A stretch of DNA of 34,387 bases from a virus. Taxonomy: Duplodnaviria > Heunggongvirae > Uroviricota > Caudoviricetes. Numbering within the stretch: position 1 is the first letter of the stretch; each line of letters starts with the position of its first letter. Below, piece after piece: positions 1,221-34,237 of this stretch. Position numbers and translations under genes: made by a program. The notes beneath the pieces were generated by a model. That model did not search any database. It was not told where the DNA came from and worked only from the letters and a program-made list of their open reading frames with translations. The stretch is from the IMG/VR virus record IMGVR_UViG_3300045988_107065; one strand, 5' to 3'.

Positions 1221-1251
1221 GGTTTGCAATTACCAAAAGGAGTGCTTATAT

Positions 1252-1266
1252 TTACCTTTGCGGTAA
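1252..1266. promoter_or_regulatory. TTACC-N5-GGTAA palindrome (site 2)
   Basis: atttaccTTTGCggtaaat. Confidence 0.45.
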
Positions 1267-1301
1267 ATTTACATCGCACTCCTCTTGTGCCATAGTAATC
1301 G

Positions 1302-1339
1302 GGCACTGGCAAAATCCAGTGCCGGGATTGGCGTCCCGG
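1302..1339 (+). other. Two tandem perfect hairpins (8 bp stem with CAAAAU loop; 6 bp stem with UUGGCG loop)
   Basis: ggcactgg-caaaat-ccagtgcc and ccggga-ttggcg-tcccgg read directly from sequence. Confidence 0.5.
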
Positions 1340-1358
1340 ATTACTAAAAGGCGCATTC

Positions 1359-1378
1359 ACCGCGCAAGCGGTTTTTTT
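1359..1378 (+). terminator. Rho-independent terminator
   Basis: accgc-gcaa-gcggt followed by TTTTTT. Confidence 0.6.
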
Positions 1379-1478
1379 ATGCGTATAGCACGGCCACATT
1401 CGTATTATGGTGGGCTGTGTGGGGGCACCGAAAGGTGCGCCGGGTCCTTTTAGCCGGTTACGCCAACCCTGCACAGTT

Positions 1479-1509
1479 CACCACCAACCGATTGGCGTCG
1501 GTAGTGGTG
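1479..1509 (+). other. Extended hairpin with UUGGCG loop in the Bro-N gene leader
   Basis: caccac-ca-accga-ttggcg-tcggt-a-gtggtg; same loop sequence as the hairpin at 1322-1339. Confidence 0.45.
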
Positions 1510-1535
1510 ATTAACCAGACTAAAAGGTAATCACT

Positions 1536-19577: not shown

Positions 19578-19592
19578 TTACCTTTCAGGTAA
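19578..19592. promoter_or_regulatory. TTACC-N5-GGTAA palindrome (site 4) just downstream of a TTGACA hexamer (19556-19561)
   Basis: attaccTTTCAggtaag. Confidence 0.45.
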
Positions 19593-19914: not shown

Positions 19915-19991
19915 GTGGCATTAGCTCAGTTGGACAGAGCAACCGCCTTCTAAGCGGTTGGTCGCAGGTTCGAATCCTGCATGCCACGCCA
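19915..19991 (+). tRNA. tRNA-Arg (anticodon UCU)
   Basis: Cloverleaf folded by hand: acceptor GTGGCAT/ATGCCAC, D-arm GCTC/GAGC, anticodon stem ACCGC/GCGGT with loop CTTCTAA, T-arm GCAGG-TTCGAAT-CCTGC, discriminator G and encoded CCA; 77 nt. Confidence 0.9.
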
Positions 19992-22112: not shown

Positions 22113-22705
22113 TGATTACCATCCTGACGTTCTTTGAGTCGCTTCCTGGCTGCCGCTATGCGATCAGCAATTGTCACATTCACATTAACATCCAGGCGTT
22201 CTTTGAATGCGTTGACGTCGACGTGCTTACCAATCAGTTCGAGGTTCTTCACCTTGTCAGGCCATTTAATTTTTTTGAGGATTGTCTCTATCGAATCCTC
22301 GTTCATGTTCATGATGGTCGATGACAGATCAAAGCCACTAAGCGTAGTGCGCCAGATTTTCGGCCACTCACGGATTGGTTTAAGGCTCCCATCGTCGTTG
22401 AGGATATCGATCACGTCCATCTGGTCGATCTCCACCAGGCGCATGAGAACGTAATCAGCACTGACGCGCATTCGTTTGTTGCGCTCCTCCATCAACTCGG
22501 CAATCCGTTTTTGAATGCGTTCATCGCGCATCATGACACTGGCTTTAACTGCCGCTGTATTTGGGGAGAATCCTGCGTTAATCGCTGCCTGAGTCTGGTT
22601 TTCAGGCGTTTTGATGTATGACTGGCAATAAGCCTCCTGCATTGCTGTGAGCGGCTTAAATTGCGTTGATTTGCGTTTATAGGTTTTAGGTTCAGCAGGC
22701 ATCAT
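22109..22705 (-). CDS. Terminase small subunit
   Basis: Conserved small-terminase N-terminal region (AYCQSYIKTP...AAINAGFSPNTAAVKASVMMRDERIQ); probable ATG at 22705 (track ORF extends to a TTG at 22783). Confidence 0.75.
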   Translation of the reverse strand: MMPAEPKTYKRKSTQFKPLTAMQEAYCQSYIKTPENQTQAAINAGFSPNTAAVKASVMMRDERIQKRIAELMEERNKRMRVSADYVLMRLVEIDQMDVIDILNDDGSLKPIREWPKIWRTTLSGFDLSSTIMNMNEDSIETILKKIKWPDKVKNLELIGKHVDVNAFKERLDVNVNVTIADRIAAARKRLKERQDGNQ

Positions 22706-22823
22706 AACCACCGTGGTAATAGTTACCGTTGTGGTAATAGTACCATGCAAAATAAAGCCGCCATAGTTGGCGGCAGTATTCAAAACCCATCAAATTCATC
22801 ATGCATAATCTACTCGTAACATG

Positions 22824-25973: not shown

Positions 25974-25988
25974 TTACCTCTGAGGTAA
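25974..25988. promoter_or_regulatory. TTACC-N5-GGTAA palindrome (site 5), overlapping the RBS of the 25617-25970 gene
   Basis: atttaccTCTGAggtaatt. Confidence 0.45.
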
Positions 25989-26035
25989 TTAAAAACCACA
26001 TAAGACACGAAATCAATAGAGTTTAGAATATTTTG

Positions 26036-26050
26036 TTACCCTACAGGTAA
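26036..26050. promoter_or_regulatory. TTACC-N5-GGTAA palindrome (site 6)
   Basis: gttaccCTACAggtaatt. Confidence 0.45.
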
Positions 26051-27981: not shown

Positions 27982-27996
27982 TTACCTTTGAGGTAC
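27982..27996. promoter_or_regulatory. TTACC-N5-GGTAC palindrome (site 7, one mismatch)
   Basis: attaccTTTGAggtacg. Confidence 0.35.
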
Positions 27997-28051
27997 GAAT
28001 AGATATGAAAAGACCGCCGGATGGCGGTCTACAGAGGGTTGTGGCTGGATA

Positions 28052-28282
28052 TCATGAGTAGAAGAAGTATGCCAGTTCTGCTTTTGAGCGCAGCCATTGT
28101 CTTGATTTACAGGCTTTAAAAAGCCCATCCATCAATACCTTACCTGGCATTTTGCGCTTACCTGTTAAGTGAGTCTGGATATAGTGACTCGTCGTTCCGG
28201 CTTCCTGTGCGAAGGCTTCACGCTCATCCGGAGTAAGTGCAAGCCAGTGCTTTTTGAAATCGAAATGTCCGTTATCGCTCAT
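28052..28282 (-). CDS. Cro-like HTH DNA-binding protein (76 aa)
   Basis: HTH segment EAGTTSHYIQTHLTGKRKMP resembles Cro/YdaS-type HTH; first gene of the minus-strand operon, divergent from the repressor. Confidence 0.6.
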   Translation of the reverse strand: MSDNGHFDFKKHWLALTPDEREAFAQEAGTTSHYIQTHLTGKRKMPGKVLMDGLFKACKSRQWLRSKAELAYFFYS

Positions 28283-28318
28283 AGCTATTGCCTGATATTT
28301 ATTTCAGATAATAAATAT

Positions 28319-28381
28319 TCACCTATAAGGTAACAAAAATCAAGGATAGTTACCCATGAGGTGCATTTACCTGTTGGGTAA
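28319..28381. promoter_or_regulatory. Divergent promoter/operator region with three adjacent palindromic sites (two imperfect, one perfect TTACC-N5-GGTAA)
   Basis: tcaccTATAAggtaa (28319-28333), ttaccCATGAggtgc (28350-28364), ttaccTGTTGggtaa (28367-28381) between the divergent cro-like and repressor genes. Confidence 0.55.
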
Positions 28382-28436
28382 TATTGCTTTAAATTGAATC
28401 ATCTTCTGATTCAGATATGAGGCGATTTTCCAGAAA

Positions 28437-29021
28437 ATGAAAAGTATCCAGGACGTCCGCAGGCAAAATCTCAACGACTTGATCGACCGTGAATTCAATG
28501 GTGTTCAGACGCGGATGGCTGAAAAACTTGGAACTCAGGCAAATCTGGTAAACCGCTGGGCTCTTGGCAAGAAGGTTATCGGCGACCAGGTTGCGCGAAA
28601 AATTGAAGCTGCCGCCAATAAACCCCGTAACTGGCTTGATATCGATCGCTCGCTTTCTCAGGAAGGTTTTCAGCCTGTCGGACCAAGCGACATTGGTCAA
28701 CTGGCGGCTCACAACCTGGAACGCTGGATGAGCGAAAGCCGCGACCTTTCAACGCAGGGAAAACTTCACCGCGCATCCGGCGTCGCCCAGGTGACAATCA
28801 GCCGCCTGTTAAACAATGAGGTCAGCGTTTCCATTTCCACCCTGGAGAATGTTGCATCCGCATTCGGGCGTCACGGCTATGAATTACTGATTCACCCGCA
28901 CGACCCTGCGACTATCAACTATGACCGCTCGCGCTACGCTTTGTTACCCGAAACCGAGAAAGCAAAGATCGAAAGTTACATTGAATTTGTCATCAACCAG
29001 AACGAAAAAAACAAACAATAA
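28437..29021 (+). CDS. Repressor-like protein with two tandem XRE-type HTH domains and no peptidase domain
   Basis: Two HTH-like segments (QTRMAEKLGTQANLVNRW; ASGVAQVTISRLLNNE); no Ser/Lys S24 autocleavage motifs seen. Confidence 0.65.
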   Translation: MKSIQDVRRQNLNDLIDREFNGVQTRMAEKLGTQANLVNRWALGKKVIGDQVARKIEAAANKPRNWLDIDRSLSQEGFQPVGPSDIGQLAAHNLERWMSESRDLSTQGKLHRASGVAQVTISRLLNNEVSVSISTLENVASAFGRHGYELLIHPHDPATINYDRSRYALLPETEKAKIESYIEFVINQNEKNKQ

Positions 29022-29041
29022 AATCATATTTTTCAGTAAGT

Positions 29042-29067
29042 AAGCCGCCTTCTGGCGGCTTTTTTAT
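29042..29067 (+). terminator. Rho-independent terminator after the repressor gene
   Basis: aagccgcc-ttct-ggcggctt followed by TTTT. Confidence 0.65.
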
Positions 29068-29078
29068 TGCCTGTTCGA

Positions 29079-29093
29079 TTACCTAACGGGTAA
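29079..29093. promoter_or_regulatory. TTACC-N5-GGTAA palindrome (site 9)
   Basis: gattaccTAACGggtaatt. Confidence 0.45.
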
Positions 29094-29140
29094 TTTTTTT
29101 AACTCATATCTATTGACATCAAACCATATACGCATAATTA

Positions 29141-29155
29141 TTACCTCAACGGTAA
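29141..29155. promoter_or_regulatory. TTACC-N5-GGTAA palindrome (site 10) immediately downstream of a TTGACA (29113-29118) promoter-like element
   Basis: attaccTCAACggtaac. Confidence 0.5.
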
Positions 29156-34222: not shown

Positions 34223-34237
34223 ATACCTTTAAGGTAA
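34223..34237. promoter_or_regulatory. ATACC-N5-GGTAA palindrome (site 11, one mismatch) upstream of the integrase gene
   Basis: atacctTTAAggtaat. Confidence 0.4.

Follow-up and report, generated by a model that had tools for sequence, protein, structure and literature searches.

The closest described relatives of the leader analyzed here are the c4-icd-ant (immI) loci of phages P1 and P7 and the isrK-orf45(STnc1160)-anrP locus of Gifsy-1. In the parts of the P1/P7 literature that deal with C4, this RNA is described as 77 nt long and as cut from a longer transcript by RNase P (PMC5320573, PMC8546580, PMC12197685), the enzyme that makes the 5' end of P1 C4 (PMC5320573). According to the same accounts, the b' loop of P1 C4 occludes the ribosome-binding site and the a' loop confers specificity, and four differences between P1 and P7 suffice for heteroimmunity (PMC5320573, PMC8546580, PMC12197685). 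The sequence record of P1 lists, in this order, the promoter P1c4 (P51b), putative a1, b1, c4 RNA, a2, b2, icd, and ant1/ant2, with a2/b2 annotated as "repression of icd ant translation." Both a1 and a2 of P1 read UUGACAG, and their complement CUGUCAA lies in the joint that follows the second hairpin of C4. The sequence of b1 and b2 is GUUAGUG, with the complement CACUAAC in the loop of this second hairpin, and b2 directly adjoins the icd ribosome-binding site.

Transcripts from the isrK promoter of Gifsy-1 either stop at the IsrK terminator or continue into orf45-anrP; the long RNA is translationally silent, and short IsrK provided in trans raises anrP translation more than 100-fold (PMC4825925). 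Mutations used to map the pairing were G28A and G31A on the IsrK side and C162U and C159U on the "orf45" side (PMC4825925). Gifsy-1 lysogens show high transcription of both IsrK and STnc1160, a stable processed RNA encoded downstream of IsrK, in every condition tested (bioRxiv 10.1101/787010). The IsrK authors cite CI of satellite phage P4 (seqA, seqB, seqC) as a structural homologue and liken IsrK to P4 CI only, making no link to P1/P7 C4 (PMC4825925), and a 2025 review treats IsrK and c4 as separate entries (PMC12197685). The link between IsrK and P1/P7 C4, absent from both sources, is worth recording.

The P4 CI RNA resembles the system described below in architecture: it is a small RNA processed from the leader of its own operon that pairs with repeats on both sides. 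Its reported effect is to end transcription of replication genes prematurely rather than to occlude the ribosome-binding site of an antirepressor. As in the present case, the sar antisense RNA of the temperate phage P22 represses translation of an antirepressor (ant) (PMC12197685), but sar is transcribed opposite its target, whereas C4 is encoded on the same strand and acts by short loop complementarities. The nut sites of lambda and the put sites of HK022 share with our leader the presence of hairpins near a terminator; they differ in that boxA is absent here and the loops vary with an RNA partner.

We analyzed a 34,387-nt stretch of phage DNA (hereafter, the window) in which a structured leader precedes a gene for a Bro-N domain protein. 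Positions 1268-1535 very probably comprise an immI-type antisense-RNA immunity module that controls the Bro-N antirepressor gene starting at 1536. As its sequence indicates, the leader is one more example of a phage immunity module that is already known; it is no new element, and its family is the one that includes P1/P7 c4-icd-ant and Gifsy-1 isrK-orf45(STnc1160)-anrP. We named the sites by the P1 convention, with the UUGGCGU copies as a1 and a2 and the CUAAAAGG copies as b1 and b2. The features are as follows.

1252-1266, no strand assigned: operator-like palindrome TTACC-N5-GGTAA, adjoining the -35 hexamer
1268-1296, + strand: predicted sigma-70 promoter of the isrK/C4/ant transcript (TTTACA, 17 nt, CATAGT; TG upstream of the -10; promoter scan)
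1302-1323, + strand: 5' hairpin of 8 bp with loop CAAAAU, conserved across the family
1303-1378, + strand: IsrK-type RNA carrying a1 and b1 (Rfam RF01394, 77.9 bits versus a gathering score of 50)
1322-1339, + strand: a1 hairpin; loop plus flank UUGGCGU at 1328-1334 is target site a1, the exact complement of a' at 1460-1466
1344-1351, + strand: target site b1, CUAAAAGG, the exact 8-nt complement of b' at 1446-1453
1351-1384, + strand: terminator-bracketing helix, GCGCAU at 1351-1356 paired with AUGCGU at 1379-1384
1359-1378, + strand: intrinsic terminator defining the short IsrK isoform (terminator scan; 5-bp GC-rich stem, T7)
1403-1488, + strand: C4 antisense RNA (Rfam RF01695, 77.7 bits versus a gathering score of 45)
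1446-1453, + strand: b', CCUUUUAG, exposed by the second C4 hairpin in its loop; equivalent in position to P1 b' CACUAAC
1460-1466, + strand: a', ACGCCAA, in the unpaired joint from the second hairpin to the closing stem; positional equivalent of P1 a' CUGUCAA
1478-1510, + strand: a2 hairpin; its loop carries target site a2, UUGGCGU at 1492-1498, the exact complement of a'
1520-1527, + strand: target site b2, CUAAAAGG, overlapping the AAAGG Shine-Dalgarno sequence of the antirepressor gene and ending 8 nt before its ATG
1536-2231, + strand: Bro-N-domain antirepressor gene, 231 aa (Pfam Bro-N, E = 2.3e-21)

Both Rfam matches are full-length: positions 1-77 of the 77-position isrK model align to 1303-1378, and positions 1-87 of the 87-position C4 model align to 1403-1488 on the + strand. 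A third motif, c4-a1b1 (Rfam RF03163), scored 45.1 bits at 1290-1342, just below its cut-off of 46.7 (E = 9.6e-10), where it overlaps the stronger isrK match; four related loci exceed the c4-a1b1 cut-off. The leader element belongs to well-described families, and an Rfam scan alone would detect it. The protein encoded downstream matches PHROG anti-repressor Ant families (E = 3.7e-63) in addition to the Pfam domain.

The region as a whole is strongly structured. The 1290-1545 segment folds with -112.6 kcal/mol (z = -6.5), and none of 200 shuffled sequences folded as well; for the C4 segment, the values are -45.6 kcal/mol and z = -4.7. The minimum-free-energy fold of C4 reproduces the architecture of the family, with a closing stem (1408-1424 paired to 1467-1483) that encloses a hairpin with a GAAA tetraloop (1425-1438) and another hairpin (1439-1458). 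The conserved 5' strand of C4, AUGGUGGG, is present in the window. A sequence-only reading of this region had listed an 8-bp hairpin, a 6-bp hairpin with a UUGGCG loop, a terminator, further hairpins, and an extended hairpin with the same loop; all these features are present, with coordinates exact or 1-2 nt off. The 8-bp hairpin is perfect as claimed (GGCACTGG at 1302-1309 paired with CCAGTGCC at 1316-1323). In the second hairpin (1322-1339), the complementary arms CCGGGA-UUGGCG-UCCCGG exist, but because nucleotides 1322-1323 are common to the preceding hairpin, both the minimum-free-energy fold and the Rfam model contain only 5 of the proposed 6 bp. The terminator scan recovered the proposed terminator (ACCGC-GCAA-GCGGT followed by T7), the extended hairpin spans 1478-1510 with the inner stem CCGA/UCGG, and the "further hairpins" turned out to be the C4 RNA. 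The hexaloop common to the two stems is real and is part of a longer, 10-nt direct repeat, GATTGGCGTC, at 1326-1335 and 1490-1499. A second repeated motif, CTAAAAGG, at 1344-1351 and 1520-1527, went unnoticed in that reading, as did the complementarity of the C4 loops to the repeated motifs.

A repeat search showed that the UUGGCGU copies at 1328-1334 and 1492-1498 are exactly complementary to a' (ACGCCAA) and the CUAAAAGG copies at 1344-1351 and 1520-1527 to b' (CCUUUUAG). The complement of the UUGGCG loops is thus encoded in the same RNA, 125 nt from one loop and 25 nt from the other. Family membership, the fold, and this four-fold complementarity are direct observations, as is the co-variation of the complementarity among related phages, which we traced in 19 loci: the window, 17 diverse phage loci that we fetched, and P1. 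In each of the 17 fetched loci, an isrK-C4 tandem immediately precedes an antirepressor gene. Across the 19 loci, the a' heptamer occurs in nine different sequences, and a2 is a 7/7 Watson-Crick complement of the cognate a' in every locus; a1 matches the cognate a' in 7/7 positions in 18 loci and in 6/7 in the remaining one, compared to an average of about 5/7 for non-cognate a combinations. The b' loop occurs in 17 different sequences and forms cognate complementary runs of 6-14 nt with b1 and b2 (6-12 nt with b1 alone) in all 19 loci; b2 ends 3-16 nt before the ant ATG. Energies of duplexes between the whole C4 and target segments were dominated by generic GC-rich stems and separated cognate from non-cognate pairs weakly; hence, we adopted the loop-by-loop comparison. 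The loops vary between phages and yet stay complementary to C4, which argues for RNA-RNA pairing and against a protein-binding site. The two UUGGCG loops are predicted target sites of the C4 RNA and not a protein-binding signal.

The stems co-vary as well. Over 18 loci, compensatory changes were found in 5 of the 6 predicted pairs of the 5' hairpin, in 11 of the 27 pairs of the C4 fold, and in 7 of the 12 pairs of the a2 hairpin, for which 91.5% of cells are paired, compared to 25-65% with a slid partner. The 5' hairpin and the a2 hairpin are thus kept in related phages, whereas the loop sequence varies. The C4 closing stem uses as its 3' strand the same sequence that the a2 hairpin uses as its 5' arm; these two folds are therefore mutually exclusive, and both co-vary. 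In the isrK region, RNAalifold applied to a MAFFT alignment recovered the two 5' hairpins and nothing further because the variable part that contains b1 and the terminator is out of register; each sequence was then folded separately. Each of the 19 loci, P1 among them, has a GC-rich hairpin and a subsequent U-tract between b1 and C4, with differing stem sequences, and the helix bracketing the terminator appears in the minimum-free-energy fold of 17 of the 19 loci, again including P1 and again with differing sequences. In the folding model, this helix could form only in read-through RNA. The segment 1303-1378 would be the 5' leader of a long transcript or, if transcription stops at the terminator, a short sRNA. 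IsrK RNAs have their own promoter and intrinsic terminator, and the window contains both by sequence (1268-1296 and 1359-1378), each positionally conserved in the 19 loci. The alternative put forward in the sequence-only reading, a small RNA ending at the 1378 terminator, accordingly corresponds to IsrK, given the Rfam score of 77.9 bits and the documentation of this RNA in Gifsy-1 (PMC4825925). Production of C4 and of the ant mRNA would require partial read-through of this terminator, as documented in Gifsy-1 (PMC4825925).

Compared with P1 immI, the window locus follows the same order: promoter, 5' hairpin, a1, b1, terminator-like hairpin, C4 (b'-a'), a2, b2 with the ribosome-binding site, and antirepressor; the C4 fold is the same. 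The single architectural difference is the absence of icd. No ORF is present between b2 (1520-1527) and the Bro-N ATG at 1536; whereas P1 has the icd cistron at this point, b2 in the window thus lies on the antirepressor's own ribosome-binding site. The regulated product, a 231-aa Bro-N antirepressor, also differs from that of P1, as do the a and b specificities (a' ACGCCAA in the window versus CUGUCAA in P1). The window belongs to a podovirus of the phiV10/epsilon15 type (Uetakevirus) rather than to a P1-like plasmid prophage, and a blastn search with the window DNA did not find P1, which is too diverged. Lacking icd, the window locus was not assigned to the P1 immI operon proper.

The Gifsy-1 locus is closer, with 72% DNA identity to the window over about 200 nt and with IsrK, terminator, C4-like RNA, and antirepressor in the same order. 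The a' and a sites are identical in the two phages (ACGCCAA/UUGGCGU), whereas the b specificity differs, and the upstream neighbor is a Q-like antiterminator in Gifsy-1 as opposed to a LexA-controlled small gene in the window. When Gifsy-1 is numbered from the Rfam isrK start, every published position is reproduced: G28 and G31 fall in a1 (UUGGCGU), and C159 and C162 fall in a' (ACGCCAA), giving the pairs G28-C162 and G31-C159. The a1-a' interaction thus already has genetic and biochemical support in a homologue that shares the a sequences of the window locus, and STnc1160 corresponds to the C4 homologue. A further counterpart is found in APSE-7, a phage of Hamiltonella defensa (LR794146), with about 71% identity between APSE and the window. 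The GenBank record annotates an isrK-family sRNA, a C4-family sRNA, and a BRO-N protein in the same order and marks putative a' and b' regions in C4, named by their order in C4, opposite to the P1 convention; both a and b differ from those of the window (a' = AUGCGAA).

By analogy with P1 and Gifsy-1, C4 processing, translational block, and a decoy role of the short RNA can be expected in the window phage, and the following sequence of events is proposed. Transcription from the 1268-1296 promoter would start at about 1303, a position suggested by conservation. Some transcripts would stop at 1359-1378, as in Gifsy-1, yielding a short IsrK-type RNA with a1 and b1, and the others would read through C4 (1403-1488), then a2 and b2, and then the antirepressor cistron. 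C4 would fold and be excised from the transcript, as in P1, where RNase P makes the 5' end. Its a' segment (ACGCCAA) would pair with a2 (UUGGCGU) in the hairpin loop, and its b' segment (CCUUUUAG) with b2 (CUAAAAGG) over the Shine-Dalgarno sequence. This pairing would block ribosome binding and so prevent synthesis of the antirepressor, leaving the prophage repressor active, and it probably also gives immunity to incoming phages of equal a/b specificity. The a1 and b1 sites could bind the same C4 segments and, on the short RNA, compete for C4, as the trans-activation in Gifsy-1 suggests; the balance between the short RNA and C4 would then set the switch. Consistent with such competition, excess IsrK turns the antirepressor on in Gifsy-1 (PMC4825925). 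Mutations of a1 in cis, however, derepress Gifsy-1 rather than tighten control, and double mutants in a1 and a' fail to restore the wild-type basal level (PMC4825925), behavior that points to a role of a1/b1 in cis more complex than that of a pure decoy. The element would thus decide whether the antirepressor is produced and hence whether a phiV10-like E. coli prophage is silent or induced, and it probably also decides which related phages superinfect.

The published Gifsy-1 model invokes translation of a small ORF and not C4-type occlusion. Applied to the window, it would have the long transcript kept silent by its own fold and short IsrK opening, in trans, the ribosome-binding site of the ORF that starts at AUG 1407; ribosomes on this small ORF would then unfold the leader and allow translation of the antirepressor, with the C4-like segment acting mainly as an mRNA element. 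The model was developed for a homologous locus, where start- and stop-codon mutants of orf45 lower activation (PMC4825925). The AUG inside C4 is conserved in 19 of 19 loci, and, in the window, a ribosome ending at 1514 would have melted the arm 1504-1513, which is paired with 1528-1537 around the ant start. The AUG, however, sits in the conserved closing stem of C4, and so its conservation is explained without a coding role. The length of the ORF is not conserved: it spans 14-15 aa and ends inside C4 in P1, Tyrion, APSE-7, PhiR12_1, and HEMP4, reaches 31-64 aa in other loci, and is fused in frame to ant in six. In the window, it comprises 35 codons (1407-1514) and ends 22 nt upstream of the ant ATG at 1536, whereas the stop codon of the 45-aa Gifsy-1 ORF overlaps the anrP start; orf45-type coupling through such an overlap was not found here. 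Moreover, b2 over the Shine-Dalgarno sequence co-varies with b', which the small-ORF model does not require. We therefore consider it unlikely both that IsrK acts mainly by opening this ORF and that its translation mainly controls the antirepressor. Another candidate mechanism is of the P4 CI type, in which C4 pairing on the nascent RNA would mainly cause premature termination, either at 1378 or, after a translation block, via Rho. All 19 loci, P1 among them, do have an intrinsic terminator that separates a1/b1 from C4. Biere, Citron and Schuster (1992) reportedly found that Rho-dependent termination within icd follows when P1 C4 represses translation, which favors this mechanism. The IsrK authors name P4 CI/seqA/seqC, where such pairing terminates transcription, as structural homologue, and IsrK in trans also raised a Gifsy-1 transcriptional fusion 8-fold (PMC4825925), but this falls far short of the 139-fold translational effect in Gifsy-1 (PMC4825925). 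In every locus, b2 coincides with the Shine-Dalgarno sequence, which suggests that translation is what is primarily targeted and makes termination rather improbable as the main effect, although termination and ribosome block are not mutually exclusive modes. Small-ORF coupling and P4-like or Rho-dependent termination could possibly contribute in ways compatible with occlusion of the ribosome-binding site by C4.

The sequence-only reading had also suggested that the UUGGCG loops bind a protein, either nut/put-like or a processing factor, and thereby regulate read-through at 1378. Two hairpins with an identical loop do flank a terminator, and Rfam lists IsrK, in its family name and description, as an Hfq-binding RNA, such that a chaperone may take part. 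A protein site would, however, be conserved or co-vary with the protein, whereas nine loop variants occur in the 19 loci, each matching the cognate a' of the C4 segment encoded between the loops. The loop complements lie in the same RNA, the a1-a' pairing is experimentally supported in Gifsy-1 (PMC4825925), and no boxA-like sequence was found in 1221-1535. Recognition by such a protein is therefore highly improbable, and the view that the loops are C4 targets is preferred; the broader claim that the leader is a riboregulatory element governing expression of the Bro-N gene is supported.

Several other identities of the region were considered and rejected. Without boxA in the region and with a loop that varies and tracks C4 a', a nut/put site was discarded. 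ARAGORN found only a tRNA-Arg at 19915 in the window and thus no tRNA or tmRNA-like element in the leader. With respect to coding capacity, the ORFs 1407-1514, 1417-1530, and 1187-1453 have no match in Pfam or NCBIfam, and, with the unconserved ORF length, a protein-coding explanation was dismissed. The single PHROG hit among ORFs of the region, phrog_20442 (unknown function), is most readily accounted for by translation of C4 DNA in the records of other phages. The description of the leader as ORF-free thus holds in the sense that it contains no conserved coding sequence, but not literally, given that mechanical ORFs of 35-96 aa overlap the region.

The IsrK-type RNA is preceded in each of the 19 loci by a promoter-like TTGACx-17-TATAxT element, whose spacing to the isrK start is constant. 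Its counterparts are the annotated P1c4/P51b promoter of P1, at an equal distance from the transcript start, and the isrK promoter of Gifsy-1. Palindromes of the form TTACC-N5-GGTAA are strongly enriched in the window (14 observed versus 0.66 expected), and the one next to the -35 hexamer, at -51 from the isrK start, recurs in the same place in phiV10, Tyrion, HEMP4, and a Klebsiella phage, most of which have another N5 spacer. This palindrome (1252-1266) is probably a binding site for the phage repressor. An operator of the primary repressor at the c4 promoter belongs to the P1/P7 immI type; in the window, the palindrome beside the -35 is a candidate for one.

From the end of the LexA-controlled small gene (963-1220) up to the 1378 terminator, no other terminator was predicted, so that SOS-induced transcripts would carry a1/b1 as a 3' tail. 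We tentatively raise the possibility that, in phiV10-like phages, such SOS transcripts titrate C4 via a1/b1 and thereby unlock translation of the Bro-N antirepressor. If so, the locus, together with the short IsrK-type RNA, would constitute a three-RNA switch (decoy, antisense, and target), and Gifsy-1 IsrK would be an anti-antisense "sponge" for the C4 homologue.

Over this region, the window shares 95-98% identity with Uetakevirus phages, among them phiV10 and TL-2011b. A search with the leader alone retrieved 306 phage records, mostly at 60-80% identity, including many Stx-converting phages, Gifsy-1, APSE phages of Hamiltonella, an Actinobacillus phage, and a Klebsiella phage, and similar sequences are present in 941 of 5426 complete E. 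coli genomes. Our finding amounts to a correct annotation, not a discovery, and its residual value lies in correcting records: the phiV10 record annotates merely a "terminator" at the leader, other records place spurious proteins, such as an "ash family protein," over C4, and some carry over-extended Ant coding sequences.

The 3′ strand of the closing stem of the C4 antisense RNA (1467-1483) has two possible partners, namely, the 5′ strand of the same stem (1408-1424) and the downstream segment GGUGGUGA (1504-1510), the latter pairing giving the a2 hairpin. Each of these helices is conserved among the loci and shows co-variation. When C4 is taken out of the folded RNA, GUGGUGAUUA pairs instead with UAAUCACUAU, around the start codon of the antirepressor gene ant. 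These alternative pairings suggest a conformational switch. The terminator hairpin of isrK is itself bracketed by a helix of 5-8 bp (1351-1356 with 1379-1384 in the window), which can form in read-through RNA only. This helix lies outside the Rfam isrK model and is present in the minimum free energy fold of 17 of the 19 loci, P1 included, at the same position in comparison loci L004-L019; its sequences differ between loci.

The published mutations of Gifsy-1, G28A and G31A in IsrK and C159U and C162U in orf45 (PMC4825925), map exactly onto the C4-system segments a1 and a′ when placed on the Gifsy-1 locus (L005 1495-1740). The sole system with which the IsrK paper compares this locus is P4 CI (PMC4825925), and a 2025 review gives IsrK and c4 separate entries (PMC12197685). 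Public records of four related phages contain protein calls across the C4/isrK DNA, all of which probably represent a mis-annotated RNA gene:

L003 (vB_EcoP_ZX5) 1518-1631, "ash family protein"
L012 (cdtI) 825-1973, over-extended "transcriptional regulator" CDS
L015 (Stx1_14040) 957-1979, over-extended "Ant" CDS
L006 (phi296) 1532-1699, hypothetical protein

Upstream of the RNA genes, an 85-aa protein (963-1220) is preceded by a near-consensus LexA box, CTGTATAAATATACAG (926-941). The box is conserved: phiV10, Tyrion, and HEMP4 carry it at positions -374 to -380, counted from the start of isrK. The 85-aa protein aligns with residues 150-223 of the Bro-N antirepressor (1536-2231) at 42% identity (BLASTP E = 8e-16), and both proteins match phrog_450. 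Judged by these similarities, the antirepressor C-terminal domain exists here as a separate, free-standing copy with SOS control of its own. Because the terminator scan predicted no terminator from the 85-aa gene up to the one at 1378, a1 and b1 may also be carried on SOS-induced transcripts.

The palindrome TTACC-N5-GGTAA occurs 14 times in the window, compared with 0.66 copies expected by chance, at the following sites or spans identified by palindrome search:

872-886, palindrome
1252-1266, palindrome adjoining the isrK/C4 promoter at its -35 hexamer
2304-2318, palindrome
19578-19592, palindrome
22705-22737, palindrome span
25974-26050, palindrome span
27982-29155, palindrome span
34223-34237, palindrome

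These palindromes are probably operators of the main phage repressor. The position of the promoter-adjoining copy is kept in phiV10, Tyrion, HEMP4, and a Klebsiella phage in the locus comparison. With its center at about -44 of the isrK/C4 promoter, this candidate operator could mediate either activation or repression.

Positions 1-33 of the window match, with one mismatch, the Illumina TruSeq adapter/read-1 primer sequence. This segment is adapter left untrimmed at the contig end, and the tailspike-like ORF on the minus strand (12-767) is therefore artificially cut off.

Matches to another RNA family, sRNA-Xcc1 (Rfam RF02221), were detected downstream of antirepressor genes in two Stx-type phages, Nil2 (L007 2625-2708, 79 bits) and phiSTEC1589 (L016 2167-2257, 69 bits); the Rfam scan of the window yielded no match to this family. 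ARAGORN identified a phage-encoded tRNA-Arg with the anticodon TCT at 19915-19991 of the window.
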